Shown piece by piece: positions 3,901 through 51,067 of a DNA stretch of 53,271 nucleotides; the stretch's first letter is position 1; each line of letters starts with the position of its first letter. This DNA comes from a virus (taxonomy: Duplodnaviria > Caudoviricetes), in IMG/VR virus record IMGVR_UViG_3300034374_002820, positions 1 through 53,271 of that record. The stretch is one strand, 5' to 3'. Both the position numbers and the translations under genes were made by a program. The notes under the pieces were generated by a model. It was given only the letters and a program-made list of their open reading frames with translations. It was not told the DNA's origin and searched no databases.

Positions 3901-6695
3901 ATGCAGCCACAATTCAAAAGATTCTAAAAGCACCATTAACGGTCACGGATGCAGATTTCTTTGGTCAGGACCTTGTCCACCCTGATCCATCAGTTAGCAG
4001 AAACATGACTTTCCGAATTGACCCCGACACAATCCTGAGTGAAGTGTTGAGTGAAACCAGAAACGCACTCGATTTTCTCTTCATAGAAAAAGTAGAAGCT
4101 GTTATTCAAACCATATTGAACGAAGCAAACGCTGCCATCAAAAGGAAAGCTGTGGACGGGGAATCTTATGTCCCCGTGACTTTCCAAGATGTGAAAGACG
4201 GCGGGGCGAGTCTAGACGCTAAAATTAATCAGTTAGAACAGAACAATGTTAACGAAACTTTGATCAAACCCTTGAGAGATAGCCGTCTTATTTACACAGA
4301 AACTATGAAGAAAAAGGGTCTCTTCTATTCTCCGTCACTTCGTTCTGGATCATTTGGTTTCAAGTTCACGTACACCGACCGGTCCGGAAGAACCGTCGAA
4401 GGTTTCCACATGATACCTGATCCAAACATAGCGAAACCATCTATGAAAAAAGCCCGGGCTGTTGCGGCAAAGTTTTTTAAAGACAACCCTCTATATACAC
4501 CCGGGGGCCTTAACGATAAAAAAAGCAGTTCTCCGGAAGACGTTGTTTATGAACTGACTCGGGATAAGTTCTTGAAGGATCTAAGCCCTTCCGGAGTCGG
4601 TAGTATTATGGGTATCTTTGATTCTATCACCGAATCAACAGATATCGACGAGATAGCCGACTTTAGAAAAAAGCTGGCGGCGGCCTTAACCAAGGGAGCG
4701 GTAACAAAAAGTCTCCCACTATCAAGAAACATTCCCGGTTACCTGACGAATCAGAATCTGTCCTCGTATTTAAATGAGTCGTGGAATAGCTTTGTTACAG
4801 GTCAGGCCAATATCATTTCCCGTCTGCCAAATAATGCCACCCTCCAGAACGATATAAGAAAGGCAAAGGGCGACAGATCTATTCCAGAAGAAGTGACTGA
4901 CCAAATTGACAAAGTCTGGGGAAAAGAGGGCTATCTTACAGAAAACCAAAAAATAGCAGATCTTGCCAAGAGAGGTGCCTTTACATTCTGGCTCGGCGGA
5001 AACATATCATCTGCCGTTGTAAATCTGGTTGGCCTTGGTCATACAACGCTGCCTTACCTACTCGCATCTGCTGATAATCCAGCACAGGCTGTGCAGGCGT
5101 TGACCAAGGGAACAAAGATCGCCCTGAGTATGACAAAGCAGTTGCCGATAAAAGCCCCAAAGGTTGGAGCCCTGAAATGGAGAGATAAGTTTCTTCAGTT
5201 TTCCGACAAACCTTTTGACTTTATAAAAAAACCTGCGGGACTCACGGACGCAGAGTGGTCCGTGATACAAAACATCCAGCCTACCCTAGAGCCAATGCAG
5301 CTTTCAGATGTCACATCCGACCTCGCACAAAAGGGATTGCTCAAGGGTAACAATCCTGCAACCCGTGCCATTGATACAGCAATTCGGGGATCGGGCGTTG
5401 CGTTTGCATGGGTTGAGCAATTCAACCGGGTTGCCACGGCAATCGCCGCTATCGAATTGGCCAAGAAGTCCCCCCAGAAATCCAGATTACTCTACGAAGC
5501 CGAGGGTAAAAACAGATACGGGAACTACACACTGGAAAATTTTGTCAGGTTCTCTGTTGAAAAGACCCAGTTCAAGTTTGATAAGACCGAACGCCCGGCG
5601 TACAACCGTGGTGCTATCGGCGGGGTTATTACCCAGTTCCTTCCTTATCAGACAAAGGTTTTTAAATATTATCTTGGTGCGATGAACGCAGCCATGACCG
5701 GAACCTCTGGCATTGATGCCGATGGTAAGCCGATCAAGATAGATCGTGAGACAAGAAAAGTCTATGCTGCCATGGCCATGTATTCAACAATGGCTTTTGT
5801 CGTAGGTGGCGGCATCCTTGGTCTACCCGCTGCTGCGATAATCGGGGATATGATGTCAATGGTTGCTGAAATCTTCAGTGATGAGGAAGAGACCCCCGAA
5901 GATTTTCTCATGGATTTATTCAACGACGTTGGTCTTAATCAGGAAATATCAGCGGCCCTAACAAACAGGGGTGTGTTGTCATTACTCGGTTTAGAGATTG
6001 GTAAACGTACAGGTCTTGAGGGTCCACGTTCTCTGTTGCAAATAACACTTGGTCAGAAAAAGGCAGATCCAGAAGATTTCTTTGGACCAGCCGGTGGTAT
6101 TCTGGGTAGTGTTTCAAATGCTGTTCGACGTTACAGCAACGGTGATACTGGGCTGGCCTTGGCTGAGCTTATGCCCCCGGTTTTCAAGAACCTCTTCTTG
6201 GCCGCAGAGGGGGACAGACGTGTCAGCCTGTCTGGACGTGAGCTTGCGGTAGAATCTTTTGGTGGCGTGGATATGGCCGACAGAGTCCTACAAGCAATCG
6301 GCTTTGTCCCAACGTCTGTTATCGAAGCCCGAACCGCCGCTTACAAAGAAATCATGATCAACCGTGATTACCGAGACAGGGGCAGAACCTTTGCCAATGA
6401 TCTGAAAAATACTTACGTTGAACTGCTGGTCGCACAAGAGGAAGGTGATGACGACCGTGTTCAGCAGTACTCGGAGCAAGCACAGGTAATCATCATGGCG
6501 GCTGTGGAACAGATGCGAGAAAACCCTGACAAGCCCTTTAGCTTTAACCCACGAAATCTGATGCGGTCAGCGTTTGATGATTACATTCGCAGAACCGGGA
6601 AGGCTCTGCCCATGACGAACATCCCGAAGGTTGTACGCCCAGAGTTCACCGATTATCTGGACAGGTTCTCGTACAGGTATCAACCAGAGCAGTGA
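990..6695 (+). CDS. Large internal virion/DNA-ejection protein (polyvalent-protein-like), 1901 aa
   Basis: Size and position at the end of the structural arm; N-terminal Gly/Ala hydrophobic segments, EGSQEALQ motif, degenerate zincin-like motif (VGEEAFHVAQ), helical C-terminal region with QFLPYQ and hydrophobic segment. Confidence 0.75.
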   Translation: MSELTLDSFGKTYTFGDDVSMEEAIAEVRGKFNPKYAGTDIERLFNSNLNLAVQQADPTQFAIDRSLFDEAVNGIQLGFNNVLGGTISGVESLSEAVVGTELFGNYLQDWGTDIMDEGLRNHRPGRDYEWAGKLGNALGSIGGFMAGVGAAASVGGAIAVTAPVSLPVGATMSAVTLGTGLALGAAWSADEANRRAQAAGATEEEIRSATLWGGLAGLPEGIPVGRILGLGPRFLMAASGGKLGALTRQRAEGLIDDATYYRKLEQIRDESKFLLRYAKEVATDAGLEGSQEALQAIGQNLIERYIYNPDQPIVDMASIEEGLYGGSAGAIMSVLTAPFKVRGNPAGDVIQAADTAARETISVAAPASTKAQIDNLPGETAFVLAGAVDRTETKLGTPTESTRDPDTGEVVERLILETDLPTDVKKTIIEQFGENKVVAEEAASAVGTIPGMGKVMKAVDEQAETRPLNKVFADIAERQGRASPINLGRDQDRANRRAVTQAREGLEQARKDRLEQASKEGRVTEFLQEEMFAEVAAGVEKLRNRQRSEKEGMFAELSAGVERLESERLEGVSEGVAEFQARRDATEQAREGLRQRADRQAVRGEVERGAESQAETDIPVIDGVMIPEKDVVAQNKLRDDIRKLAGDKVNVMFAGAKKIRDMYNKFTGSRFTTVLGFTMGTGDAIVLDKDYVKNNPGASVDMLVGEEAFHVAQTMFLTEGEQKILREVFTPELAGQNGIDLGSYTDPEMKRLEAQAKLMGKAYAEGLDSIVGLPKKKKGFIRRIMDKLLKGLKSLAGVAKKNNSEYQSIDEIFDAFTSGALARPSEARSESLTDNTNLNKIYASGAATVGAEPLIKSLESKIEPGKKALKSTYQFLYDWIYSKVNTSWDFFSKYDGLRAVAETVGKIEDKYSSVLQGVRDRTGEGHLNKLTEPEKAIHNIFMDVVQHVLNERFKPNTVVNEKYLRDLGITNAATIQKILKAPLTVTDADFFGQDLVHPDPSVSRNMTFRIDPDTILSEVLSETRNALDFLFIEKVEAVIQTILNEANAAIKRKAVDGESYVPVTFQDVKDGGASLDAKINQLEQNNVNETLIKPLRDSRLIYTETMKKKGLFYSPSLRSGSFGFKFTYTDRSGRTVEGFHMIPDPNIAKPSMKKARAVAAKFFKDNPLYTPGGLNDKKSSSPEDVVYELTRDKFLKDLSPSGVGSIMGIFDSITESTDIDEIADFRKKLAAALTKGAVTKSLPLSRNIPGYLTNQNLSSYLNESWNSFVTGQANIISRLPNNATLQNDIRKAKGDRSIPEEVTDQIDKVWGKEGYLTENQKIADLAKRGAFTFWLGGNISSAVVNLVGLGHTTLPYLLASADNPAQAVQALTKGTKIALSMTKQLPIKAPKVGALKWRDKFLQFSDKPFDFIKKPAGLTDAEWSVIQNIQPTLEPMQLSDVTSDLAQKGLLKGNNPATRAIDTAIRGSGVAFAWVEQFNRVATAIAAIELAKKSPQKSRLLYEAEGKNRYGNYTLENFVRFSVEKTQFKFDKTERPAYNRGAIGGVITQFLPYQTKVFKYYLGAMNAAMTGTSGIDADGKPIKIDRETRKVYAAMAMYSTMAFVVGGGILGLPAAAIIGDMMSMVAEIFSDEEETPEDFLMDLFNDVGLNQEISAALTNRGVLSLLGLEIGKRTGLEGPRSLLQITLGQKKADPEDFFGPAGGILGSVSNAVRRYSNGDTGLALAELMPPVFKNLFLAAEGDRRVSLSGRELAVESFGGVDMADRVLQAIGFVPTSVIEARTAAYKEIMINRDYRDRGRTFANDLKNTYVELLVAQEEGDDDRVQQYSEQAQVIIMAAVEQMRENPDKPFSFNPRNLMRSAFDDYIRRTGKALPMTNIPKVVRPEFTDYLDRFSYRYQPEQ

Positions 6696-7497: not shown

Positions 7498-9768
7498 TCA
7501 GATTCCCTCAATTTGCAAGAAAGATTTGTACGAGTCGTAGTTTTTCTTTTCTTTCTCAATCTGCCAGAGGGCATGTCCCATACCGCCTTCGCCATACACA
7601 TGGTACTCAGAATCGTCGTCTCGTTGGAAGAACTGTTCCATGTCTTGGCCCATCGCCAGTAGCTCTCCGGTTGAAACAAAAGACTCTCCCCCGACACTGA
7701 CCTGTAGATACTTCGGACGACCCTTGTCATCCTTTGTATCCATGTCAAGCGGCTCATTTAAATCCATACAGGCATCGTAACCAAACAGATGGAACGTGCG
7801 GAACCCGAAAGTATGCATCAGGGCAATCTGTCGCATCGCTGCACAGGTTCCACCAGAGATCATGAGTCTATCAGACATCCCATCAAAAGTTGTCACAGCA
7901 TTCGAGAACGCATCCCATCCGATAATCTTGGCATTATTCTTTTTCAGATAATGGGTGACAGACGGATCTGTCATCGAAGCCACGAAGTAATATGTATCTG
8001 GATTCGGAGTGCCTAGTAGATCCCTTCGCTTGAAACCGTGCGTCGAGATACCATCAAGCTCTCGGGGATCAAGGATGACACAGCCCCATGGGATGATACC
8101 ATTTTCGATGAGGAAGTTATGAGCGTGTTTAACACACACAACCTTATGTCCCCTCTCGTAAAGCTCCTGAATCAGGTGCAAGTCCTTCTTGATTGTGGGA
8201 CCACCCGAGACACAGATAACACTCTCTGTGTTCCAGTGGTATCTGGAGTTAACCCACTTATCAATCATGAGATGATTCGACTTAATGTTATTGTGAATGT
8301 ATTCATCAGGGACGCAGTCACGAGGCTGCACCTTGATAGGAACCGTGACGTTCTCGAAGTCCGGTGGAACAGGTAGACTACCGTCGATAGCATAGGCAAG
8401 ACAGGTGATCCCGCCGCCCTGTACCCCGTCTCTGGACGGGATCACACCTGAGTGAAGATCCTCGGAAAGTTCCCCATCAATAATCAGGTTACACCCAAAC
8501 TTCGTAGTGTCTAGGATTTCCCCGCCTTCGCCAGATGGCATGTAGTAATCATCAAAGATGATAACAGGGACATCCTTCAGGTTATCATAGTCCGATCTGA
8601 TCGTTTCGATTGAGTGCCCCCCATCGATATAGGCAAAGTCTGGGGAATATCGAGACATGATATCGGGAAGAGTATCTCTTGAATTACCCTTGATCAGTTC
8701 GAAGCTGACCTTCTTTTTTTCGAGGAGCGCATCCTTGGCGTAAGTATTAAGGAGTGCTTTGACATTATGTAGATAGGTCCGTTGCTTTACGTTAGCTTCT
8801 TCCTTATCCAGTTCTTCATCTCCGTCTTCAAACATATCCAGTCCGACGTAATGAACAGAATCCGAATTTTGAAGCGCAGCGCTGAGTAAACGTAAAGCTC
8901 TCTTACCATTCCACGTACCCACTTCAAGCAGCTTCGTACTCTTGTAATGGACGATGAACTTCTCGATCTCTTTATAACGTAAGGGTCCGGGTTGATAAGG
9001 CGCATTAAGAATCGCCTTGCGTCCCCCCTTAAAGTGAATGAAGTACTCGGCCAAAACCGAGTATTCAAACGCATCCAGTGATGCTGCATGTGGTGAAAGA
9101 TTGTGTGCAGTAATCCCGTGATTTTTGTGTAAGTTAAGAAGTCGTTCAAATGAAAAAGCATCAGTCCATTCCCTTAGTCCTAGAATTTCATTGGATGTGT
9201 ATAGGCCCCTCCAGTCACGGAGAAACTCATGAGCTTTATTATAATTAAGATTAAAACCAATGAAGCCTGTTTCAGAATAATCAATGATACCTTCACGTCC
9301 AAGGTGAACCAGATCCGCCGTGTCTGGAAAAACAAGATTCAAAAGATTAGTGTCTACTTTCTTTGTGGTAATCACATCAGCATCGATCCAACACAACCAA
9401 CCCATGTCCTTCTTTGAAGACATGTACCTTACATGATCACATAAGGCGAACACCTTATGGCTGAATTTAACAGCGTCCATTCGATAGTTGTACGGCTCAC
9501 CGCCATTAAACTGAGCGTTCTTTTTCTTGAATGTATTTAGATCTGTGTTCTTATCCAGAGACACATAGTTAATATTCTTTGCTTTAATAACATCCTTTGG
9601 GAGCTTACCACCATCATAGTACACAGTGAGTCTGATGTTTTTGGGCCAGAACTTTACCCAGCTTTCGATAAAACGTCGGGCATATACTTCATAGTCACTG
9701 ATCCTGAAAGATGTGATTACGGTAATAGGGGTGTGTAGATCTAGTCTAGTGTTTGAGGCTGCGGTCAT
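7498..9768 (-). CDS. Three-domain fusion: GT-A-like glycosyltransferase + class I SAM methyltransferase + DUF115/MAF_flag10 (MptE-like) domain
   Basis: WIDAD (DxD) and ETGF in the N-terminal part; LLEVGTWNG and DFAYIDGGHS in the middle; ICVSGGPT and GGTCAAMRQIALMHTFGFRTFHLFGYD at the C-terminus. Confidence 0.75.
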   Translation of the reverse strand: MTAASNTRLDLHTPITVITSFRISDYEVYARRFIESWVKFWPKNIRLTVYYDGGKLPKDVIKAKNINYVSLDKNTDLNTFKKKNAQFNGGEPYNYRMDAVKFSHKVFALCDHVRYMSSKKDMGWLCWIDADVITTKKVDTNLLNLVFPDTADLVHLGREGIIDYSETGFIGFNLNYNKAHEFLRDWRGLYTSNEILGLREWTDAFSFERLLNLHKNHGITAHNLSPHAASLDAFEYSVLAEYFIHFKGGRKAILNAPYQPGPLRYKEIEKFIVHYKSTKLLEVGTWNGKRALRLLSAALQNSDSVHYVGLDMFEDGDEELDKEEANVKQRTYLHNVKALLNTYAKDALLEKKKVSFELIKGNSRDTLPDIMSRYSPDFAYIDGGHSIETIRSDYDNLKDVPVIIFDDYYMPSGEGGEILDTTKFGCNLIIDGELSEDLHSGVIPSRDGVQGGGITCLAYAIDGSLPVPPDFENVTVPIKVQPRDCVPDEYIHNNIKSNHLMIDKWVNSRYHWNTESVICVSGGPTIKKDLHLIQELYERGHKVVCVKHAHNFLIENGIIPWGCVILDPRELDGISTHGFKRRDLLGTPNPDTYYFVASMTDPSVTHYLKKNNAKIIGWDAFSNAVTTFDGMSDRLMISGGTCAAMRQIALMHTFGFRTFHLFGYDACMDLNEPLDMDTKDDKGRPKYLQVSVGGESFVSTGELLAMGQDMEQFFQRDDDSEYHVYGEGGMGHALWQIEKEKKNYDSYKSFLQIEGI

Positions 9769-30853: not shown

Positions 30854-33800
30854 ATGGCACTCCCTAACGACAACATTAACATCCTAGATTTTATTCTCCC
30901 AGACGAAATGGATCTAGACGCTATTCCTTTTGAGCCAGCCCCCGAGATTTTTTTCTCGGACAATCTCGCTGAAGAATACCTTGATGAATCCGAGATCGAA
31001 AGAATCGGAAGCATTGTCATGGACTCTTACACGTCAGACAAAGAATCCCGGGCTGAATGGGAAAGCATGTTCGAGAAAGGCTTCGAACTCCTTGGTCTCA
31101 AGTTAAACACAACCTCTGAGCCTTTCGAGGGTGCCTGCACAGCCGTACATCCCCTACTGATCGAGAGCGCCGTAAAGTTCCAATCAAAGGCTTCCGAGGA
31201 ACTCTTCCCACCACAGGGTCCTGTTAAAGCCCAGATCATCGGCAAATCCAATGCTGAAAAAGAAGACCAGTCCGAACGTGTCCAGTCATTCATGAACTTC
31301 CAGCTCACCGAAGTAATGCCAGAATACTTTGACGAATTCGAGCGTATGCTCTTCCATCTCCCACTTGTAGGCTCGGCATTCAAGAAAATCTACTATGACC
31401 CCGCCTCGGAACGCCCTGTCTCCGAGTTCGTCCCCGTTGACCAGTTCTATGTCTCGTACAACGCCACGGACCTACGCCGGGCTGACCGATACACCCACGT
31501 CATTTACATGACCCCCCACGAACTCCAGAAGCAGATCATGTCCGGGATGTATCGTGACATCGATCTCTCAGAGCCCGGAAACTTCCAGCCATCGACCATG
31601 AGCCAGACAATCAACTCAATCATGGGCATCGAATTCAACGCCGAGCACGACAAGCAGTACACCCTGCTAGAACAGCACCTGTACCTCGAACTCGAGGATG
31701 ACGAATTCCCATCACCTTATATTGTCACCGTTGAAAACGACTCTGGTCAGGTCCTCGGCATCCGACGCAACTGGAACGAAAACGATCCAACCCGTGAGAA
31801 GAAGATGTACTTCACTCACTACAAGTACGTCCCCGGCTTCGGCTTCTACGGTCTCGGCCTGATTCACTTCCTCGGTAACATGACCATGTCTGCCACTCTG
31901 GCAATGCGTTCCCTCCTAGATGCTGGCCAGTTTGCCAATCTACCCGGCGGCTTCAAGGCCCGTGGCATCAGGATTGTCGGCGGTGATGATCCCATCGCCC
32001 CCGGCGAGTTCAAGGAAGTCGAAGCAACGGGTATGGACCTGAACAAGGCCATTGTCCCACTCCCTTACAAGGAGCCTTCCCAGACCCTGTTCCAGCTTCT
32101 GGGCTTTATCACGCAAGCCGGTCAAAAATTCGCAGACTCCACGGACGCTGTGGTATCTGATGCATCGAACTACGGACCCGTGGGTACGACCTTGGCTCTT
32201 ATCGAGGCTTCAGCAAAGCTCTTCTCGGCCATTCACAAGCGCCTACACAAGAGTCAGAAAGATGAACTCCGGATTTTGGCCCGGCTAAACTACGAGTTCC
32301 TCCCAGATGAGCAGATGATGATCCCTATTCCGGGCCGTGAACTACCTGTCACCCGTTCTGACTTCGACGGACGTGTCGATATCATCCCGGTCTCTGACCC
32401 TAACATTCCCTCACAGGCTCATCGTCTGGCACAGGCCCAGCTACTTCTCCAGATTTCAGCACAGTCAACCCCCGGCACCTATGACATGCGAGAAGTACAC
32501 AGGTCCTTGCTCACAGCCGCCGGTGTACGGGAACCATCACGTTTCCTATCCGCCGAAAAGGAACCTCAGGAACAAGATCCTGTCTCTGATATTCTGGCGG
32601 CATCAAAGGGTCTCCCGATCTCTGCCTTCCCCGGTCAGGATCATCAGGCATACATCCGAGTCTTCACATCATTCTTGCAAGACCCCACCCTTGGCCAGAA
32701 CAAGATTCTTCAAAGCATCGGTCCGATCCTACAAGCCGCCATCAGGGATCATATGATGATGCAGTATCAGGAGACCATGAGTGGTCTGATGAATGAAGCC
32801 GGTGTCGCACAAAACCCAGATGTCATGCCCGAGATCATGGCCGAGGCCGCTCAACAGATCCTGAATGCTAACCAGCAGCTCGGTCAGTACCAGAGTCTGG
32901 AACAGCAGCAACTAGCCCTAGAGTCCAGAAGTCTTGAGCTAAAGGAAAAGAGCTTAGATCAGGACAACGCCAGAGAGATGGCCGACCTCTCCCTGAAGAA
33001 ACAGGAACTCGACATCCGCCGCCGTGGTCAGGACATCGACGCAGCAAAAGACATCGGTGTCAACACAATCCGAAACAAGGAAGCCGAGAACAAAAAGGAC
33101 ATCATGCTCCAGAAATTCCTTTTGGAAGGACTTGGCAAGATGCGAGACATTAACTTATCACAAGAGACCAAAGGATTTGCCGACGGCGGAGCCGCAGAAA
33201 TCAAAGGGTATAAACCCGGAGGCACGGTAACCTTTGACGATGTCATTGCCTTGATCAATAGCTACGATCCTGAACAGCTAGGTACCGGCTCTGATATTTA
33301 CCCCGACGAAGCCCGTGCCATGGCGGAAGCAGCAGCATATCGAAACAACATGAGTATGTACGAAGATATTCAGAACACTAAGAAATCACAGTTCTCTGAA
33401 ACCCCGGATATTAATGTATCAGGGTTAAAAGTACCAGAAGTAGAGCCCCTGTCTCCCACCGACGCAAGCATGTTCAAGGCTATGCAGAGTCTGCCAGAAG
33501 TAAAGCCCCTGTCTCCCACCGATGCAAGCATGTTCGAGGCTATGCAGAGTCTACCAGAAGTAAAGCCCACGGCACCTCAGAGTACTACGTCAGAAGAAGT
33601 AGAAGAACCCACGACATCCCAGATTCTAGGGGGCCGTCCACAACATTTATATACGCACCCAATAACTACATTTATGGAAGGTCTTGGAGGCCGTGAGGGC
33701 GATTACGATCATTGGGATAAAATAGCCAACGAATTCACTCTAGCTTACGGTGTTGTTCCTGAAATCGATAGTGTTACTATTGTCTTGGATGCCAAGGGCA

Positions 33801-34369
33801 ACATTGATGAGGAGAAAACTGATATCTCCGGTGCCAGAAAAGGTGATATTGATGATCCGGATGCTCTGTATTTGGCAGACTACAATAATGATAAGAAAGC
33901 CTTTGCGGAAGCCGTTGCCTTACAATTTTATAATGAAGTTAAAGATCAAGAATATAATGGAAAACCCTTAAAAGCTTATAATGAAGAAGCTCAAGCAGCA
34001 GTGATTGATACTATCTATAATTTCCGAGAGGCTTCGGGCTGGGACGATGTTAGCCTGTTTCTAGATGAGTCAGATAATATTGGTACTGAGGATTATAATA
34101 GGGATAACCTCCTCCAGTTCACACGAAATTTTAGGGCAGGTGGAAAATTTCTACCGGGCATGTTAAAAAGAAGACTCTTAGCATACAATATGGTTGCACC
34201 TTTAGAAGACCGAGCAGTCAAAATTGAAATCTCAGAAAGACTTGGTGAAGACGGGGAACGAACAGGAACATTTTACGATATCTACAACGCAAACGGTGAT
34301 ATTATGCAAAGATGGGAAAAAGATTATGAGGTTCCCCCAAAAGATCTAGGTACCTTACTGGTGGAGTAA
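30854..34369 (+). CDS. Portal protein with C-terminal extension carrying a GH24 lysozyme-like domain
   Basis: Portal core (PFEGAC.AVHPLL.E, GSAFKKIYYD, GFGFYGLGL.H, PYKEPS, PVGTT.AL, PVSDPN) to ~aa 770; then REG..HWD....FTLAYG, QAAVIDTIYN, AGGKFLPGMLKRR. Confidence 0.9.
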   Translation: MALPNDNINILDFILPDEMDLDAIPFEPAPEIFFSDNLAEEYLDESEIERIGSIVMDSYTSDKESRAEWESMFEKGFELLGLKLNTTSEPFEGACTAVHPLLIESAVKFQSKASEELFPPQGPVKAQIIGKSNAEKEDQSERVQSFMNFQLTEVMPEYFDEFERMLFHLPLVGSAFKKIYYDPASERPVSEFVPVDQFYVSYNATDLRRADRYTHVIYMTPHELQKQIMSGMYRDIDLSEPGNFQPSTMSQTINSIMGIEFNAEHDKQYTLLEQHLYLELEDDEFPSPYIVTVENDSGQVLGIRRNWNENDPTREKKMYFTHYKYVPGFGFYGLGLIHFLGNMTMSATLAMRSLLDAGQFANLPGGFKARGIRIVGGDDPIAPGEFKEVEATGMDLNKAIVPLPYKEPSQTLFQLLGFITQAGQKFADSTDAVVSDASNYGPVGTTLALIEASAKLFSAIHKRLHKSQKDELRILARLNYEFLPDEQMMIPIPGRELPVTRSDFDGRVDIIPVSDPNIPSQAHRLAQAQLLLQISAQSTPGTYDMREVHRSLLTAAGVREPSRFLSAEKEPQEQDPVSDILAASKGLPISAFPGQDHQAYIRVFTSFLQDPTLGQNKILQSIGPILQAAIRDHMMMQYQETMSGLMNEAGVAQNPDVMPEIMAEAAQQILNANQQLGQYQSLEQQQLALESRSLELKEKSLDQDNAREMADLSLKKQELDIRRRGQDIDAAKDIGVNTIRNKEAENKKDIMLQKFLLEGLGKMRDINLSQETKGFADGGAAEIKGYKPGGTVTFDDVIALINSYDPEQLGTGSDIYPDEARAMAEAAAYRNNMSMYEDIQNTKKSQFSETPDINVSGLKVPEVEPLSPTDASMFKAMQSLPEVKPLSPTDASMFEAMQSLPEVKPTAPQSTTSEEVEEPTTSQILGGRPQHLYTHPITTFMEGLGGREGDYDHWDKIANEFTLAYGVVPEIDSVTIVLDAKGNIDEEKTDISGARKGDIDDPDALYLADYNNDKKAFAEAVALQFYNEVKDQEYNGKPLKAYNEEAQAAVIDTIYNFREASGWDDVSLFLDESDNIGTEDYNRDNLLQFTRNFRAGGKFLPGMLKRRLLAYNMVAPLEDRAVKIEISERLGEDGERTGTFYDIYNANGDIMQRWEKDYEVPPKDLGTLLVE
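33434..33568 (+). repeat. 60-bp coding tandem repeat in the portal-lysozyme linker
   Basis: PEV(E/K)PLSPTDASMF(K/E)AMQSL x2 plus a partial third copy. Confidence 0.9.
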
Positions 34370-44588: not shown

Positions 44589-45788
44589 ATGTCATCATAC
44601 ACATCCAGAATCAGACTAGAAAAACAGATCCCCGGTCAAAACGAAAACACATGGGGCACTGTCCTTAACGATAACGTCATTGATCTTGTCGATGATTCTA
44701 TCGCAGCCTACACCACGATCACCGTATCATCTGTTGATGTTACTCTGACGCAGTCGAACGGTGCTTCTGATCAGGCACGTAGTGCATTCCTAGATATCTC
44801 GGGAACCTTGACCAGCAACGTCAATGTCCTTATCCCTGCCCTTTCAAAAGGCTACGATGTTCGTAATTCCACATCTGGTTCTTTCACCGTTAACATGAAG
44901 ACCGCCACGGGCTCTGGACAAATTATCCCACAAGGCCAGAGTATCGGTGTTGTATGTGATGGCGTCTCAGTACGTGACATCGAAACACCCGGCATCCGAT
45001 CCACATCAAACGTGGTTAATGTATCCGTGGGAACCTCTTTGATTGACATTAAAGTTCCTGTGGCAATTTCGGGAACTGTCTCCATTGGAGGAGGCATTGC
45101 TGTATCTGGTTCTTCAACATTCTCCAGCAATATCACCATGAACGCCCAGAGTGATGTAAGATTTGCTGATGCTGATAGTTCAAACTACATCGCCCTACAG
45201 GCACCAACCTCTGTTTCAGCCAATGTTACCTTTTCGCTCCCTGCCGCAGATGGTTCATCTGGAGATGTCCTTCAAACAGACGGCAGCGGAAACCTAAGCT
45301 TTACTCCTTCCGTTCCAGCGGGTTCTGTTATGCCTTATGCAGGATCAACGGCCCCTTCTGGCTGGCTCCTTTCTTATGGTCAGGCAATCAGCAGATCAAC
45401 CTATGCAACCCTGTTTGCAGCCATCGGGACCACGTATGGTGTTGGTGACGGGGCAACAACATTCAACGTCCCCGATCTTAGAGGTCGCCTTGTTGCTGGT
45501 CAGGATGACATGGGTGGTACTTCTGCTGATCGTCTCACAGGTCAATCTGGTGGTGTTAATGGCGATACCCTTGGTGCATCTGGCGGCGCTGAGACCCATA
45601 CACTAACACCCGGGGAATTACCAACAGCAGCCACTTACCAGAGACAAACCAGCAACGGTGGTCAGGGCGGTGTATCATCATCCGGTCTTGCACAAAATCC
45701 GGCATATATTCCACTAGTAGGGGCTAATGACGAGGCGCATAACAACGTACAGCCAACAATTATTCTCAATTATATCATTAAGACATAA
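44589..45788 (+). CDS. Tail fibre with phage tail-collar domain
   Basis: G.NENTWG...N N-terminus; VPAGSVMPYAG..APSGWL...GQAISR.TYA.LFAAIGTTYG.GDG.TTFNVPDLRGR; HNNVQP...LNYIIK. Confidence 0.88.
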   Translation: MSSYTSRIRLEKQIPGQNENTWGTVLNDNVIDLVDDSIAAYTTITVSSVDVTLTQSNGASDQARSAFLDISGTLTSNVNVLIPALSKGYDVRNSTSGSFTVNMKTATGSGQIIPQGQSIGVVCDGVSVRDIETPGIRSTSNVVNVSVGTSLIDIKVPVAISGTVSIGGGIAVSGSSTFSSNITMNAQSDVRFADADSSNYIALQAPTSVSANVTFSLPAADGSSGDVLQTDGSGNLSFTPSVPAGSVMPYAGSTAPSGWLLSYGQAISRSTYATLFAAIGTTYGVGDGATTFNVPDLRGRLVAGQDDMGGTSADRLTGQSGGVNGDTLGASGGAETHTLTPGELPTAATYQRQTSNGGQGGVSSSGLAQNPAYIPLVGANDEAHNNVQPTIILNYIIKT

Positions 45789-45791
45789 CCC

Positions 45792-46466
45792 ATGCCTGAT
45801 ATTATTCTAGTAGGCGGACTACTAACTCCACCGCCACCACCACCACCCCCGCCACCTCCTCCACCTCCACCCCCGCCACCAGCAATGACCTGTTTTGCCA
45901 GCGATACTCTAATATTGATGGGTGATCTTTCATGGAAACAGATCAACGAAGTCGAAGTCGGAGATTACGTAATCTCGATGTCTGGCAAACCTGTTGAGGT
46001 TCTGGAGAACAAACCTGTCCCTGTATCCAAAGGACGACGGATGATGAGCCTACATCGTAAAAGACAGAGTAAACCCTTACGCTTCAGTGATGACCATGAC
46101 ATGTGGATCAGAGACGACAACGGGGTTGAACGCTGGGGTGTCTATAATTATAACTGGTGGCTATTGGAAGACCGTGGCTATGCCGAATCTTCCGAGGAAA
46201 ACTTCCCCGGTGAAAGCCCCTATGACTACGAACACATTGGTAAAGCAACGATGCCTCTCTTATACGGGAAACAGTACGAATTCGCCACCATCGATGGCTG
46301 GGAAAAGACCGAGGCAACATGGGATTCTGAACAAGACCCCGAAGAAATTATCCATGGCCTGTTACTAAAATCTGGTGGTGGATATATAGTAGATGGATTT
46401 GTAGGGATTTCACAGTGGTGCAGAACAGAGGACATTCGGGATATTCAATGGAAAGGTCTACCCTAG
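45792..46466 (+). CDS. Polyproline leader fused to a stand-alone Hint (hedgehog/intein) domain
   Basis: 18 consecutive Pro codons (45828-45881), then CFASDT.I.M.D...K.I.EV.VGD.V (block A), S.DH (block B), YIVDG (block G-like). Confidence 0.8.
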   Translation: MPDIILVGGLLTPPPPPPPPPPPPPPPPPPAMTCFASDTLILMGDLSWKQINEVEVGDYVISMSGKPVEVLENKPVPVSKGRRMMSLHRKRQSKPLRFSDDHDMWIRDDNGVERWGVYNYNWWLLEDRGYAESSEENFPGESPYDYEHIGKATMPLLYGKQYEFATIDGWEKTEATWDSEQDPEEIIHGLLLKSGGGYIVDGFVGISQWCRTEDIRDIQWKGLP

Positions 46467-47089
46467 TCTGTGGTCTTTATAGATCAGGTACCACATATCT
46501 TCAAACCATTCTTGATCCTGATAATACGCATACCGAGTACAAGCACGAGTTTGTCAGGACAGACATCCCAGACAAGATTAAATCCATGGACAGGGTAATT
46601 ATTCATAAGTCCCCGTACAAATGGATCGACAGCATCATCTCTCAATCATGGGAACTTGGTGATCACTACAGAGTCCATTACGAAAAAGGACACACCAAGA
46701 TCAGATGCGCCACAAGCCGGACACTCAGGGATACACCCGATATTGTCGAAGAGTATAAGACATACAGTTTGGAAAACATCTGTGATCTCTACAACAGATT
46801 TTTCCACTTCTGGTTATCAGATCCTTTTTCCTCAGTTATTAAATTTGTAAAATACCGGGATCTTATCAGTGACCCCGTCACAACACTGAAGAATCTTGAT
46901 ACCAGAATAGATCCAGACGGCTTACCTATAAAAGTTTCTGGTTCTTTTGAATTTACCCCTGAAAGAAAAAGAATGGCTCTGGACCCACGTATGTCGTATA
47001 ATATGACACCAGACATGTCGCATATCATAAAGAACAACGTAGACAAGAGTATATTAAAATCTCTTAATTACACAGGAGTGTTTGAGTAA
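46448..47089 (+). CDS. Sulfotransferase-like (P-loop) protein
   Basis: VCGLYRSGTTYL (5'-PSB-like), KH, KSPYKWIDS (3'-PB-like), VKYRDL..DP. Confidence 0.7.
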   Translation: MERSTLVCGLYRSGTTYLQTILDPDNTHTEYKHEFVRTDIPDKIKSMDRVIIHKSPYKWIDSIISQSWELGDHYRVHYEKGHTKIRCATSRTLRDTPDIVEEYKTYSLENICDLYNRFFHFWLSDPFSSVIKFVKYRDLISDPVTTLKNLDTRIDPDGLPIKVSGSFEFTPERKRMALDPRMSYNMTPDMSHIIKNNVDKSILKSLNYTGVFE

Positions 47090-47862
47090 TGCCCGTATCA
47101 TACGCTGAAAAACTAGCTGTAGTCATGGAGAACACTATTCTCCCTGATTGGAAAGTACTGGTGTCTTCTTACTTTGAAACAGAGACCGTTAATCGAGAGT
47201 CTGTTTTAGATGCACTCTATAATAACTATAATAGAATCAGGTGTGTTCAGGGAAGACCTATTCTTCCCAGCATTATCAGAGATTTTTCCTATATTGGTTG
47301 GGATAAGGACATGGAGCCGACCCCTCCTTTTACTGATCCTAATGAGGAATGGACCAACGGAGAAATTATTAAATACAGTTGGTTAAAAGGCCGGGGGTCA
47401 ACCTCCCCACTGGACTACTCGAATTACTGGCAAGATAAGAGGGTATGCGACATAGGCTGTGGGACTGGGACCTCAACTATCATCACACACAAACTGGGGA
47501 GTGTTAATGCTGTCTACGAAGGTCTGGACGAATCCCAAGTGATCGCAGCTTGTAATTTCGTCTTACTTAATTATGACGTAAGATTTTTTTCAGAGGTGGC
47601 CTCCATAGAAACTATTGATATGTCTTACGATACCTATATCATGTCCCGTATTTTTTATGGTGGGTGGGCTCAAAAGAATTTGGATCTGGGTAGATTTTTA
47701 CGAGACGAGGGAAAAGAAGTTCTTATCGCATCAAAGTCTCTTGTTGAAGGTACGAATCCTGAGACCACCTTAAACCCCTCAGAATATGAAATTCTTTTAG
47801 ATATCCCCCTCATATCAGACCCTGTGGGTTTTGGTAATAGATACGTTGTAAAACTAGTATGA
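47089..47862 (+). CDS. Class I SAM-dependent methyltransferase
   Basis: KRVCDIGCGTG motif I; TAATG-coupled. Confidence 0.75.
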   Translation: MPVSYAEKLAVVMENTILPDWKVLVSSYFETETVNRESVLDALYNNYNRIRCVQGRPILPSIIRDFSYIGWDKDMEPTPPFTDPNEEWTNGEIIKYSWLKGRGSTSPLDYSNYWQDKRVCDIGCGTGTSTIITHKLGSVNAVYEGLDESQVIAACNFVLLNYDVRFFSEVASIETIDMSYDTYIMSRIFYGGWAQKNLDLGRFLRDEGKEVLIASKSLVEGTNPETTLNPSEYEILLDIPLISDPVGFGNRYVVKLV

Positions 47863-49007
47863 TAAAGATTTACCCGGTGATATCTGATTCAGTCAAATCA
47901 GTTGATATAGTCCCTGCCACTAAAACCAGAGATTGGTTTTCCCCTCACTCTTATAAATGCACACCCCTTACTTGTGCGAATACCCTTGGATGGGACTTGG
48001 TACTAAATGAATCAATCACTGTCGAATGGGACGGGGGTGTCTACAAAGACAATCTCACGGTCCTAGAAGGTCACGGTGCAAAGAGCCACTTCGGAATAGG
48101 GACATTCACTCTAGACCCCGGATATGTCTGGCGCACTGATGAGAACATTAATCTCATGGTTATGCCAGTTCCTAACACAGACAACACAGATATTCAAACG
48201 ATGTCCGCAGTCATCGAGACTGATTGGTTATCGTACCCATGGTTTCTGACAATCAGGGTCATTAACAAAGGAAAAACCACAATCCCAAAAGGTACCCCCG
48301 TTGCCCGTGTTATTCCTGTGGACACCGGAACCATCGAAAATACCAAGATTTATAAAATGTGTGAACCGGACAGTGTCCGCAAAGAACGAGAAGTATTGAC
48401 AGACAAACGTGACAAAGCAGATGAGTGGACAAAAGATTATTTTAAAAAAGCACGTAGGTTTGTCCGGTGTTCTCCTGTTATAGACTATAACGATAGTTTC
48501 AAGATACTAGAAGAAAACGATATTCACTCTAAAGAATCTTTCTTAGACACAGACGAATGTTCTTATTTAATCAGAAACTGGGTTCCTGAAAACCCTGATG
48601 ACACTTCTGATCTTTGGAGAAACAAGATGTGCTGGTCAACCATTGAGGCAAATAAAGGAGTTATTGAGGAAAGACTATTACAATTCGCCCAGCAAAAAAC
48701 TGGTCTCGACCTATCAATATTAAACCCACATACTGTAAGGTGGGGCAAAGGGGATGAGATGTTAGTACATGATGATCTAGGTGAGCACCGAGAATTTCCT
48801 AACAGGCATTTTGCTGCTATAGTTTATCTTAATGAAGATTATGAAGGAGGTGAGCTTGTATTTCCACATCTTGGCTTAGGGATAAAAGGACATACGGGGG
48901 AACTTATTCTTTTTAGAGGCGGCTCTGTCATGCACAGAGTAAACATGATTACATCGGGTAATCGTTATACTCTTGTATGTTGGTTTGGTATAAAAGAGAG
49001 TGACTAA
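47859..49007 (+). CDS. DUF6065-like domain fused to a 2OG-Fe(II) oxygenase (prolyl 4-hydroxylase-like)
   Basis: N-part RDW...Y.C.PL..AN..GW, ETDW; C-part HDD, IVYLNEDYEGGEL.F, H.V..ITSG.RY. Confidence 0.85.
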   Translation: MIKIYPVISDSVKSVDIVPATKTRDWFSPHSYKCTPLTCANTLGWDLVLNESITVEWDGGVYKDNLTVLEGHGAKSHFGIGTFTLDPGYVWRTDENINLMVMPVPNTDNTDIQTMSAVIETDWLSYPWFLTIRVINKGKTTIPKGTPVARVIPVDTGTIENTKIYKMCEPDSVRKEREVLTDKRDKADEWTKDYFKKARRFVRCSPVIDYNDSFKILEENDIHSKESFLDTDECSYLIRNWVPENPDDTSDLWRNKMCWSTIEANKGVIEERLLQFAQQKTGLDLSILNPHTVRWGKGDEMLVHDDLGEHREFPNRHFAAIVYLNEDYEGGELVFPHLGLGIKGHTGELILFRGGSVMHRVNMITSGNRYTLVCWFGIKESD

Positions 49008-49009
49008 AA

Positions 49010-49222
49010 ATGGCTAATTTCACAGACAGAGAACTGGGTAATATGGAGGCTAGGATTGTTCTTCTTGAGAAAGAACTGAGTGCCGTCCGAAACGACACCC
49101 GTAAAATTCTTCTTACTCTCTCAGAAGCACAAGGTGGCTGGAAAACATTGATGATGCTCTCCGGATTCTCCGCTGCTCTTGGGGGTATCATATCTCAAGT
49201 TTTCCTAAATTTTCCGAGATAA
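49010..49222 (+). CDS. Small coiled-coil membrane protein (holin/XhlA-like)
   Basis: Coiled coil, GGW, C-terminal hydrophobic helix. Confidence 0.55.
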   Translation: MANFTDRELGNMEARIVLLEKELSAVRNDTRKILLTLSEAQGGWKTLMMLSGFSAALGGIISQVFLNFPR

Positions 49223-49228
49223 TCTAAC

Positions 49229-51067
49229 ATGTCAACAGACACAATCACAACAAAATTTAAATTTGCCCCTACTCTTCTTCGTGATGATACACAATACGAG
49301 GCCGAGGGCGGCTGGTATGACGGTAACCGTATCCGGTTTCGTAATAGCAACCCTGAAAATATCCGGGGTTGGAACAAACGAGTTCTTGGTGAATTGACAG
49401 GAACTCCTCGTGACATCGAGATTTGGTCAGGACTAAATCAAACAAACTATATTGCATGGGGAACAAACAATGCACTTCAAATTTACGAGGGCGGTTCAGT
49501 CTCTGACATTACCCCTATTACTTCAACTACATCCTTGGTCAACCAGATTAGCACCTCCGTTGGTTCTTCATCTATTCTTGTATCTTTGACAGGCCACACC
49601 AGAGTAGCGGGTGACCGTGTCGCATTTGTCTCGATGGCTGCAACAGTCGGCAACAACGTTTTCCTAAATTCCATGTTTACCATTACCACTGCATCAGACG
49701 CTAATCATTTTTCTTTTACATACACAACCGTGGCCGCTGCAACATCTGCCAACGTTGGTACAGTGACCCTTCAATACTTACTAAAGTCAGGGTCCCGGTA
49801 TAATACCAACGGCCTCGGCTGGGGCGCTGGCACCTACGGCACGGGAACATACGGTACTCCTGCCTCTACATCAAATATTACTTTACGTATGCGTAACTGG
49901 AGCATGGACACCTTTGGAGAGGATCTTCTGGCGAATCCCCGTGGAGGCTCAATCTATCTCTGGGATGCAACATCAGGTACTGACGTAAGGGCGCAAATTG
50001 TCTCGGCTGCTCCTGTGTCTGTCAACAGTATCATAGTCTCAGAAAAATCGAGACACGTCATTGCCTTGGGTTGTAATGACGTATCCGGTAATTTCGATCC
50101 TATGCTGATCAGGTGGTCTGATCAGGAAGACTATGACGTATGGACGCCAACAGTCACGAACGCCGCAGGTGATTTCCGAATCCAGAGGGGAACACAGATC
50201 AATCAGGGTGTCTATTCCAGAGGCGGTGTCCTTGTACTAACAGACTCGGCCCTGTACGGCATGGTTTACGTCGGACAGCCCTATATCTTTGCCACGGATA
50301 TTCTTGGTGACGGTTGTGGTTCGATCTCACCCCATGCAGCAAAAGATTTTAATGGTAGTTTGTATTGGATGGGTGAGAGCAACTTCTTTGTCTTCAACGG
50401 TCAGGTACAGGTTCTCCCGTCATCTGCCAGAAAATATGTTTTCTCAGACTTTAATTTCTCTCAGAAAGAAAAAGTATTCTGTGGTATCAACACAGAATTT
50501 TCTGAGATTACATGGCTATACCCATCTGCTGATTCGCAAGAGTGTAATAAATATATCTCATACAGCCCCGTGGAAAACTATTGGGTCTTCGGCGATGCCT
50601 ACTGGACAACATGGGATTATGGGGCGGACATCTTTGGAAATATTATTACCACAGGTGTCTCGGCTGGTGTTGCTTATCTTTATAACAACGAGCCCCCCAA
50701 CACTTACAGTGCTGTCATCGGAGATAACCAGTTAATCGGATACGAATCCTTTATTCAGAGTGGTGACTTCGATCTCGGGGACGGTGACGATCTCTTGTTT
50801 GCCGATAAATTTATCCCGGACTTTGAACTCACCGACCCCGGTGGAATCAACAACGACCCCGAGGTCAACATCCTGATGGGTGCTAAACAATACCCCACGG
50901 CAACAACAGTATCCAAAGGTCCCTTTGTTGTCTCGGCATCGACCCGATTCCAGAACATCAGACTCCGGGGAAGACAGGCAAACCTCAGGATATCCACAAG
51001 TGCTGTCGGCACTTCATGGAGGCTCGGCACATTCAGACTTGATCTGGTACCGGATGGGAAACGCTAA
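49229..51067 (+). CDS. Tail nozzle / tubular protein B-like
   Basis: Y.AEGGW.D...IRF, WS.D.FGEDL, IRWSDQE, F.EI.W.YPS, RLRGRQ, WRLG..RLD..PDG.R; beta-propeller-like. Confidence 0.75.
   Translation: MSTDTITTKFKFAPTLLRDDTQYEAEGGWYDGNRIRFRNSNPENIRGWNKRVLGELTGTPRDIEIWSGLNQTNYIAWGTNNALQIYEGGSVSDITPITSTTSLVNQISTSVGSSSILVSLTGHTRVAGDRVAFVSMAATVGNNVFLNSMFTITTASDANHFSFTYTTVAAATSANVGTVTLQYLLKSGSRYNTNGLGWGAGTYGTGTYGTPASTSNITLRMRNWSMDTFGEDLLANPRGGSIYLWDATSGTDVRAQIVSAAPVSVNSIIVSEKSRHVIALGCNDVSGNFDPMLIRWSDQEDYDVWTPTVTNAAGDFRIQRGTQINQGVYSRGGVLVLTDSALYGMVYVGQPYIFATDILGDGCGSISPHAAKDFNGSLYWMGESNFFVFNGQVQVLPSSARKYVFSDFNFSQKEKVFCGINTEFSEITWLYPSADSQECNKYISYSPVENYWVFGDAYWTTWDYGADIFGNIITTGVSAGVAYLYNNEPPNTYSAVIGDNQLIGYESFIQSGDFDLGDGDDLLFADKFIPDFELTDPGGINNDPEVNILMGAKQYPTATTVSKGPFVVSASTRFQNIRLRGRQANLRISTSAVGTSWRLGTFRLDLVPDGKR

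Follow-up and report, generated by a model that had tools for sequence, protein, structure and literature searches.

The DNA analysed here, called the window throughout, is a viral record of 53,271 nucleotides (53 kb, ~95% complete), which comes from an aquatic podophage with an SU10-type adaptor and portal. Our subject is a cassette of four plus-strand genes lying between a Collar-domain tail fibre gene and the gene of a virion structural protein. It is headed by a small open reading frame (ORF) that joins a short leader and a run of prolines to a Hint domain, followed by genes for a sulfotransferase-like protein, an S-adenosylmethionine (SAM) methyltransferase-like protein and a fusion of DUF6065 with a 2-oxoglutarate and Fe(II)-dependent (2OG) oxygenase of prolyl 4-hydroxylase (P4H) type. 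The features of the cassette are as follows, with lengths in amino acids (aa).

45792-46466, plus strand: Hint ORF, 224 aa
45792..45827, plus strand: 12-aa hydrophobic leader MPDIILVGGLLT, with synonymous codon change in the clade
45828..45881, plus strand: run of 18 Pro in mixed codons (CCA 10, CCG 3, CCT 3, CCC 2)
45882..45893, plus strand: junction Ala-Met-Thr33/Cys34, the predicted scissile bond and putative catalytic Cys1
45891..46466, plus strand: Hint domain, residues 34-224, assigned from an AlphaFold2 (AF2) model, Foldseek and the family alignment
46448..47089, plus strand: sulfotransferase-like P-loop protein, 213 aa from its ATG, with the 3'-phosphoadenosine 5'-phosphosulfate (PAPS) loop of Sulfotransfer_3
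47089..47862, plus strand: class-I SAM methyltransferase-like protein, 257 aa, weak matches, the best to PrmA-type protein methyltransferases
47859-49007, plus strand: DUF6065 + 2OG fusion protein, 382 aa
47859..48470, plus strand: DUF6065 domain, N-terminal half of the fusion (Pfam DUF6065, 8.2e-34)
48500..49007, plus strand: P4H-type 2OG-Fe(II) oxygenase domain, C-terminal half of the fusion (2OG-FeII_Oxy_3, 4.3e-11)

The genes are tightly coupled, since their boundaries overlap by 19 nt (counted from the ATG at 46448, which agrees better with relatives than the alternative GTG start at 46415), 1 nt and 4 nt. The ORF list and these overlaps confirm what a preliminary description of this DNA had proposed, namely four coupled genes between a tail fibre and a virion protein, and the composition it gave for the first product, a 12-aa leader, 18 Pro in mixed codons, AMT and a Cys-initiated Hint domain without terminal His-Asn, is equally what we find. 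That description called the downstream neighbour a nozzle; it is a virion protein (phrog_3287), and the label nozzle is backed by no family model. Promoter-like sites in the cassette were no more numerous than in shuffled controls, and a terminator scan gave none that was convincing within it.

The Hint ORF is a real gene under protein-level selection, because its leader changes synonymously and its prolines are kept despite changes of codon and length. The product runs, in order, MPDIILVGGLLT, 18 Pro, AMT and Cys34. The same cassette was present in 11/11 related IMG/VR loci, and these eleven loci together with nine metagenome contigs carry it in the same order at 55-97% protein identity. Across seven clade sequences the leader shows synonymous differences at 10 of its 12 codons, residue 10 alone varying (L, Q, K), and in relatives the tract consists of Pro throughout, with other codon arrangements and lengths of 18-23, which bears out the earlier suggestion that proline itself is the selected property. 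Among window ORFs of at least 60 aa the tract is the sole run of five or more Pro, and the window holds no collagen-like repeat. The fibre gene ends in TAA with the Hint ORF starting three bases on, and the two share a frame in the window; read-through of the fibre stop codon into the Hint ORF was considered and is made unlikely by the loci L008-L010, where the frames are not shared, the upstream frame differs and is stop-rich, and the ATG leader is conserved. A 58-aa poly-Gly ORF (45770-45946, minus strand) merely reads the Pro tract in reverse complement and is no gene.

Modelling of the Hint domain by AF2 from an 87-sequence alignment gave a predicted local distance difference test (pLDDT) score of 88 and a predicted template modelling (pTM) score of 0.80. 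A Foldseek search of the PDB with this model returned at least 50 matches at E <= 0.001, and those listed were all inteins, bacterial intein-like (BIL) domains, Vint or hedgehog proteins, with BIL2 (6y75, E 3.4e-8) best, then inteins and Vint, then hedgehog (1at0, 4.2e-5). The first Cys is present in 74/74 family sequences that reach that column, and the residue before it is Ser in 36, Thr in 23 and Cys in 8 of these 74. Block B reads Ser99-Asp-Asp-His102 in the window (46086-46097), its His being kept in 86/87 family members and its Ser/Thr in 83/87. The C-terminal block carries the terminal His-Asn in none of the 87; the window protein reads Gln-Trp-Cys210 (Cys210 = 46419-46421) and ends 14 residues later. 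A conserved tail of ~18 aa, which includes Trp220 (69/87), follows the Hint core. Pfam Hom_end_hint scores 27.4 bits, under its cut-off of 32.1, with residues 34-72 alone aligned, and Pfam Hint scores 15 bits against 29.7, with block A alone aligned.

By its modelled fold, nucleophile and block B the domain belongs to the HINT superfamily; as it stays under the Pfam gathering cut-offs, it represents a divergent Hint subfamily. It does not appear to be an intein, the terminal (His-)Asn being absent and no host protein being interrupted. Because the terminal His-Asn is missing while Cys1 and block B are kept, the chemistry open to it would be an N-S acyl shift that forms a thioester at Thr33-Cys34 without splicing. 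Fold and residues together therefore uphold the earlier identification of a Hint domain equipped for an N-terminal acyl shift and devoid of the terminal Asn.

The protein can be compared with several known Hint systems. BIL2 of Tetrahymena BUBL1 (PDB 6y75, 6tmm), the closest structural match (TM 0.71 on the target), likewise starts with a Cys, has the block-B His and acts on the protein segment that precedes it. BIL2 is reported to join its upstream ubiquitin-like domain to substrate lysines through an isopeptide bond without ATP (PMC8616854). The two proteins are only 12-14% identical. BIL2 ends in an Asn, mutated in the crystallised form (C1A-N143A), which the window protein lacks, and the part that it carries upstream is a folded ubiquitin-like domain, whereas Hint in the phage family follows a polyproline peptide or a fibre. 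To our knowledge no partner enzymes accompany BIL2. The hedgehog Hog/HhC domain (1at0) shares the HINT fold, the Cys thioester, the absence of a terminal Asn and an upstream part that would be released and perhaps passed on to a nucleophile. It differs in that the hedgehog junction is Gly-Cys whereas the window's is Thr-Cys, in the phage context, in an upstream part of 33 aa and in that no sterol-recognition region is evident in the window Hint, only the ~18-aa tail. Inteins share the fold and blocks A and B; Cys210 sits where the +1 nucleophile would be, a place where certain family members have retained Ser-Asn-Cys. Against this likeness, the family lacks His-Asn throughout, a homing endonuclease and host segments to be spliced together are absent, and the domain is terminal, not internal. 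A separate group of phage proteins (L237, L239, L244, L245, L253, L273, L276) was also encountered, in which the C-terminal Hint closes with precisely Val-His-Asn-Lys before the stop codon. This resembles the C-terminus of an intein followed by an 'extein' of one residue, and some of these proteins have poly-Gly before the Cys.

An exhaustive search for relatives of the Hint domain gave 257 at E <= 1e-3 among 1.84 billion cluster representatives, and architecture was counted on 87 that were aligned, 74 of which include the N-terminal side. Hint is the last domain of a larger protein in 62 of the 74, and the other 12 are, like the window protein, short forms that start with a hydrophobic leader resembling a strand. 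Of the 51 PHROG families matched by the aligned members, 25 were listed, and every annotated one among these 25 is a tail or tail-fibre family; the N-terminal parts in individual loci are gp36-like, gp38-like or collagen-like. Over the 30 residues preceding the Cys, 11 of the 74 sequences are Pro-rich, 16 Cys-rich and 3 Gly-rich, while the other 44 differ in composition from all of these. On these counts the subfamily usually forms the C-terminal end of tail-fibre proteins, after a low-complexity linker, with the window gene a short stand-alone minority form. This is the position otherwise held by Peptidase_S74, the last, self-removing domain of trimeric fibres, as adjoining fibre genes at L101, L224 and L022 end in a Peptidase_S74 chaperone instead of Hint. 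Peptidase_S74 uses a Ser-Lys dyad and is unrelated to Hint in sequence and fold, and we know of no modifying enzymes that accompany it. A FastTree of the Hint domains (midpoint rooted, support values not considered, 13 rows without the Cys column excluded) places the polyPro type in one clade, inside which short and fused forms interleave. A scan of prokaryote contigs gave mostly generic intein/Hint block-A matches in actinobacteria; 3 ORFs matched at least 140 positions of the Hint profile, one of them, in an alphaproteobacterial metagenome-assembled genome, with a 2OG-like ORF nearby.

That the four genes belong together is indicated by gene neighbourhoods, which could be read downstream of Hint in seven lineages of the polyPro clade at 36-96% Hint identity. 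They are listed here, (-) marking a gene on the opposite strand.

Window clade: Hint, sulfotransferase-like, methyltransferase, DUF6065-2OG
L018/L127 (54%): Hint, methyltransferase, DUF6065-2OG
L020 group (~45%): fibre-Hint, sulfotransferase-like, 2OG (-), methyltransferase-DUF6065 fusion, 2OG
L019/L132 (39%): fibre-Hint, DUF6065, B12 radical SAM, ..., sulfotransferase-like (-), 2OG (-), DUF6065, ..., 2OG
L133 (38%): fibre-Hint, weak methyltransferase-like, 2OG
L134 (36%): short Hint, sulfotransferase-like, methyltransferase, DUF6065-2OG
L022/23 (36%): gp38-like adhesin-Hint, sulfotransferase-like, 104 aa, weak methyltransferase-like, 2OG (-)

A P4H-type 2OG gene occurs in 7/7 lineages, a sulfotransferase-like homologue in 5/7, DUF6065 in 5/7 and a methyltransferase-like gene in six, two of these weak, while enzyme order, strand and fusions (methyltransferase-DUF6065, DUF6065-2OG) vary among lineages. 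The local hidden Markov models for the sulfotransferase-like, methyltransferase and 2OG families were seeded partly from the counted loci; detections independent of the seeds are L019 and L134 for the sulfotransferase-like family, L127 and L134 for the methyltransferase, and L127, L133 and L134 for 2OG, and orthology of the methyltransferase across lineages is weak. The preliminary description had proposed to look in other phages for co-occurrence of polyPro-Hint genes with, among others, 2OG and sulfotransferase genes, and such co-occurrence is seen in diverged lineages despite rearrangement; the shuffled neighbourhoods that would have pointed to an ordinary hypervariable island were not seen, the Hint-enzyme linkage holding in all seven. 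The sulfotransferase-like family was found in none of 64 Hint-less loci anchored on DUF6065 and was likewise absent from all 50,697 records of cultured phages, its homologues being seen in Hint loci only. Three cultured Hint-less relatives are also devoid of DUF6065 and of the sulfotransferase-like and methyltransferase genes.

Taken singly, the enzymes are identified with differing confidence. The sulfotransferase-like protein scores 28.3 bits with Sulfotransfer_3 against a cut-off of 27, over model positions 4-41 only (the PAPS loop). GLxRSG, K54, W59 and S62 are invariant in seven homologues and a YRDLxxDP-like stretch is conserved; no PDB structure was matched by sequence with the family profile. 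For the methyltransferase-like protein all Pfam and NCBIfam models fall below cut-off, the best being Methyltransf_31 (17.8 bits vs 27), and it carries the SAM motif DIGCGTG, with GCGTG at residues 123-127. The oxygenase domain scores 44 bits with 2OG-FeII_Oxy_3 (PF13640; cut-off 27), and its alignment contains the metal and 2OG residues, His-x-Asp (VHDD), the distal His (MHRV) and Arg-x-Thr (RYT). In this it resembles the collagen-type P4Hs of PBCV-1 and Bacillus anthracis, members of the same family whose known substrates are Pro-rich repeats. Its best match of solved structure is nonetheless the PKHD hydroxylase PiuC (1.3e-4), with true P4Hs at E 0.02-0.03 (P3H1 0.021, Bacillus P4H 0.027), and a DUF6065 fusion is, as far as we know, not a feature of known P4Hs.

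DUF6065 is clearly assigned by score (PF19541, 117.6 bits against a cut-off of 26.6). Its AF2 model (pLDDT 83) has trimeric dUTPases as nearest fold (E 1.4e-4; TM 0.44-0.47 query-normalised, ~0.65 on the target), with two C-terminal helices added to the dUTPase-like barrel. Its conserved polar residues, R24, H30, C34, N41, N106, E120 and D122, suggest a binding or active site. Since its fusion partner is 2OG in several lineages and the methyltransferase in one, one may speculate that DUF6065 is a shared substrate-docking or accessory domain. A predicted complex of the DUF6065-2OG protein with the Hint protein scored 0.01 and is evidence neither way. At L045, L052, L055 and L060, which have no Hint, two DUF6065 genes are interleaved with four to seven tandem 2OG paralogues.

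Other branches of the Hint family carry other enzymes. Where the linker is Cys-rich, a SPASM-type radical-SAM gene lies no more than two genes downstream in 5/5 loci (L100, L222, JWF, L224, L227/228), against 0/10 family loci without such a linker. These linkers are Asn/Asp-Cys repeats such as NCNCDCNC, often after a Ser-His-x-His motif (positions 4702-7611 in L100 and 3077-6598 in Achromobacter phage JWF, L002), and the radical-SAM enzymes carry a SPASM-like C-terminal Cys cluster, so such loci may encode a thioether-crosslinked fibre tip. At L101 (3870-8670) Hint is found in three consecutive genes, two of which encode collagen-like proteins; a collagen-like Peptidase_S74 protein is encoded between them, and 2OG-FeII_Oxy_3 and 2OG-FeII_Oxy_5 genes lie on either side of the group. 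L219 has a 2OG gene two genes past the Hint protein. At L218 (4335-8243) a 420-aa Hint-terminated protein is followed by a tetratricopeptide repeat (TPR) + Sulfotransfer_3 protein (2.9e-36), an adenosine 5'-phosphosulfate (APS) kinase (3.4e-62) and DUF7941; stop and start overlap between the Hint gene and the genes downstream, and in the sister loci L216, L217, L220 and L229 DUF7941 comes directly after the Hint protein. APS kinase makes the sulfate donor PAPS. Comparison of the L218 sulfotransferase with the window's sulfotransferase-like profile is weak (E 0.027), and the presence of this second, apparently unrelated enzyme supports sulfation as a real part of the system. Across branches the enzyme class thus tends, on present loci, to match the composition of the stretch before Hint.

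The genes that flank the cassette are as follows.

44589..45788, plus strand: tail fibre protein, 399 aa, Collar domain (Pfam Collar 3.9e-24; many PHROG tail-fibre families)
49010..49222, plus strand: 70-aa protein with a hydrophobic C-terminus, 67-100% identical in every related locus reaching the position
49229..51067, plus strand: virion structural protein, 612 aa (phrog_3287, 1.8e-65)

Upstream neighbours are an SU10-type adaptor and the Collar-domain fibre. The C-terminal half of the fibre is swapped in L003 and L008, both of which retain the cassette. Family searches with the 70-aa protein (Pfam, PHROG, NCBIfam) gave no match. The 612-aa virion protein shares 30-36% identity with proteins of DSL-LC04, roseophages CRP-901/902 and pelagiphages HTVC023P/027P, and in a DNA-level search against cultured phages the sole match was the Collar region of the fibre. 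Elsewhere in the window, the SU10-type portal is unusually long (1171 aa, 30854-34369), and a 1901-aa ORF (990-6695) has no Pfam match. A 756-aa protein (7498-9768, minus strand) that had earlier been noted as a putative glycosyltransferase combines MptE-like (Maf/PseD flagellin-modification-like) and Methyltransf_24 domains; it lies on the opposite strand, 36 kb from the cassette.

Public sequencing data add some information on the population. In one DNA run, contigs covering the cassette are identical to the window, and contig depth drops roughly threefold, from 112-146 at the 3' end of the fibre gene to 41-49 across the cassette. Two contigs of the same run depart from the window sequence at 45787 and 45804, and in one of them the next 17 letters match the start of the 70-aa gene at 15/17. 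These data suggest that cassette-less variants are also present in the sampled population. Stretches of the Hint, sulfotransferase-like, methyltransferase and oxygenase genes were recovered, in some cases as exact matches, in contigs from three RNA libraries; these contigs bear on those parts of the cassette alone and are uninformative for the remainder, and as DNA carry-over is possible they give a weak hint of transcription.

The ORF and its selection, the fold, the conserved catalytic residues, the family architecture and the conserved gene neighbourhood were each computed directly. From these we read the cassette as a maturation module for a Hint-terminated, enzyme-modified fibre tip or peptide, a reading that we hold to be about as probable as all others taken together. 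The usual substrate would be the C-terminal tip of a tail fibre, the window mini-gene being, by its architecture, a reduced form. The sulfotransferase-like protein, the methyltransferase and the fusion of DUF6065 with a P4H-type domain would be the modification enzymes of the module, most likely acting on the segment immediately upstream of Hint: the 2OG domain would hydroxylate the polyproline, and sulfation and/or methylation would follow. Hint itself would be a constant handle with a built-in release step. Aided by Ser99 and His102, Cys34 would convert the Thr33-Cys34 peptide bond to a thioester, and with the terminal Asn absent a splicing step would not follow. The thioester would then be resolved by water, freeing the 33-residue leader-polyPro peptide, or alternatively by an amine, ligating the peptide to a target by a BIL2-like route.

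The preliminary description had cast the cassette as a pathway akin to those of ribosomally synthesised and post-translationally modified peptides (RiPPs). What stands of this is the conserved Hint-enzyme module and an enzyme class that fits the linker; what does not is the free peptide as the typical product, since the substrates would be mainly fibre C-termini (62/74). The logic of the gene neighbourhood does fit a RiPP pathway. As in RiPPs, including SPASM radical-SAM thioether peptides and sulfated RaxX, a gene-encoded substrate lies beside composition-matched tailoring enzymes and the product would be proteolytically separated from the recognition part. Here, in contrast, recognition and release would fall to a 190-aa self-cleaving domain placed after the core, where RiPPs have a short leader that a separate protease removes; the substrates would mostly be entire fibre proteins, and the system is known from genes alone. 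One may extend the argument to a general phage route, which we think possible though clearly less probable than the module itself. In such a route a low-complexity stretch, whether polyPro, collagen-like or of Cys-Asn/Asp repeats, would be modified by enzymes suited to its composition (P4H-type oxygenases, sulfotransferases fed by a phage APS kinase, methyltransferases or SPASM radical-SAM enzymes) while Hint docks them and then removes itself, possibly ligating the tip to a lysine of virion or host. The window gene would be its minimal form, yielding a 33-residue hydroxylated, sulfated or methylated polyproline peptide, and the whole would amount in effect to a self-cleaving, protein-scale RiPP system.

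A number of observations weigh against a dedicated maturation module and should be considered together. Cleavage, hydroxylation, sulfation, methylation, the substrates of the enzymes and the destination of the product are all things we infer. The sulfotransferase call amounts to one loop plus motifs, and the methyltransferase lies below every curated cut-off. DUF6065 is widespread in Hint-less viral contigs: 189 viral relatives were found, the 64 Hint-less loci retained form 35 clusters, and their neighbours are mixed (among 135 neighbour ORFs, Peptidase_M23 8, 2OG-FeII_Oxy_3 7, Collagen 4, PG_binding_1 4). Hint-less HTVC023P has four genes annotated 2OG-like in the interval from fibre to virion protein and Hint-less DSL-LC04 has one 2OG gene near the fibre, so a 2OG gene at the fibre is not specific to Hint, and, given HTVC023P, its position alone is no argument for proline hydroxylation. 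Conversely, none of the enzyme families was seen at the Hint loci of Providencia phage PSTNGR1 and L103, the latter having a glycosyltransferase-like gene. Our reading does not account for the strictly conserved 12-aa leader, and the enzymes also accompany leaderless, fibre-fused forms. Finally, as the polyPro Hints form one clade (in an unsupported FastTree), the seven lineages are not fully independent, and the enzyme block may partly be inherited as a unit.

Of the alternatives, the one that we take most seriously, while judging it unlikely, is that Hint is an assembly or cap module only, either an S74-like self-removing folding chaperone of fibres or, in the window, a separate protein with polyPro as a rigid spacer, and that the enzymes act elsewhere, for example on virion proteins or the host surface. 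It would account well for the C-terminal position that Hint shares with S74, the two alternating within single loci, for the fusion of most members to fibres and for the 2OG genes beside fibres in Hint-less relatives. It sits poorly with a sulfotransferase-like family seen at Hint loci only, with the way enzyme type tracks linker (the radical-SAM contrast of 5/5 Cys-rich loci against 0/10 others) and with a stand-alone protein whose 33-aa N-terminal part offers no fibre body to fold. It is also conceivable, though improbable, that there is no functional link at all, the enzymes being moron or auxiliary metabolic genes in a variable region and the Hint ORF a remnant of a fibre-Hint fusion. The swapping of fibre C-termini among close relatives, the cassette-less variants suggested by one DNA run and the frequency of 2OG genes at this position in marine phages speak for such a view; purifying selection on leader, Pro tract and catalytic residues speaks against it, as do the tight gene overlaps and a linkage that persists to 36% identity through rearrangements and two different domain fusions.

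A hedgehog-like transfer, in which the enzymes make or tailor a small nucleophile that attacks the Hint thioester and becomes attached to the new C-terminus of peptide or fibre, seems to us quite improbable. The terminal Asn is absent as in hedgehog and 1at0 is among the structural matches, the conserved ~18-aa tail with Trp220 could serve as an adduct-recognition region, and the DUF6065 fold resembles dUTPases, that is, nucleotide-binding enzymes. Yet enzyme sets differ by branch and follow linker composition, so that peptide substrates fit better, the L218 sulfotransferase bears TPR repeats, which are protein-binding modules, and a small-molecule biosynthetic core is absent. Least likely of all, and very remote in our estimation, is that the polyPro tract is mainly a translational brake, an elongation factor P (EF-P)-dependent stall that sets expression of the coupled downstream genes. 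Long Pro runs do stall ribosomes, and 18-23 consecutive Pro codons head four overlapping genes. The same Pro tracts, however, are internal, before Hint, in fused fibres of 650-780 aa and hence are no leader-proximal regulator there, and a brake leaves the conserved Thr/Ser-Cys junction unexplained.

Full-text literature searches, beyond whose reach lie supplements and most subscription journals, returned no description of a C-terminal Hint on phage fibres, of DUF6065 or of a Hint-enzyme association. If the maturation module is real, many uncultured phages would carry receptor-binding ends that are trimmed and chemically altered after translation, and sequence-only host-range prediction and fibre engineering would miss part of the picture. 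It would also provide a first functional context for the common phage 2OG oxygenases, for DUF6065 and for phage sulfotransferases. The general idea is open to test, as the cultured Achromobacter phage JWF carries the Cys-rich, radical-SAM version. Such a module would, moreover, represent a new natural use of Hint thioester chemistry, and may offer a compact self-releasing tag or a means of protein ligation.

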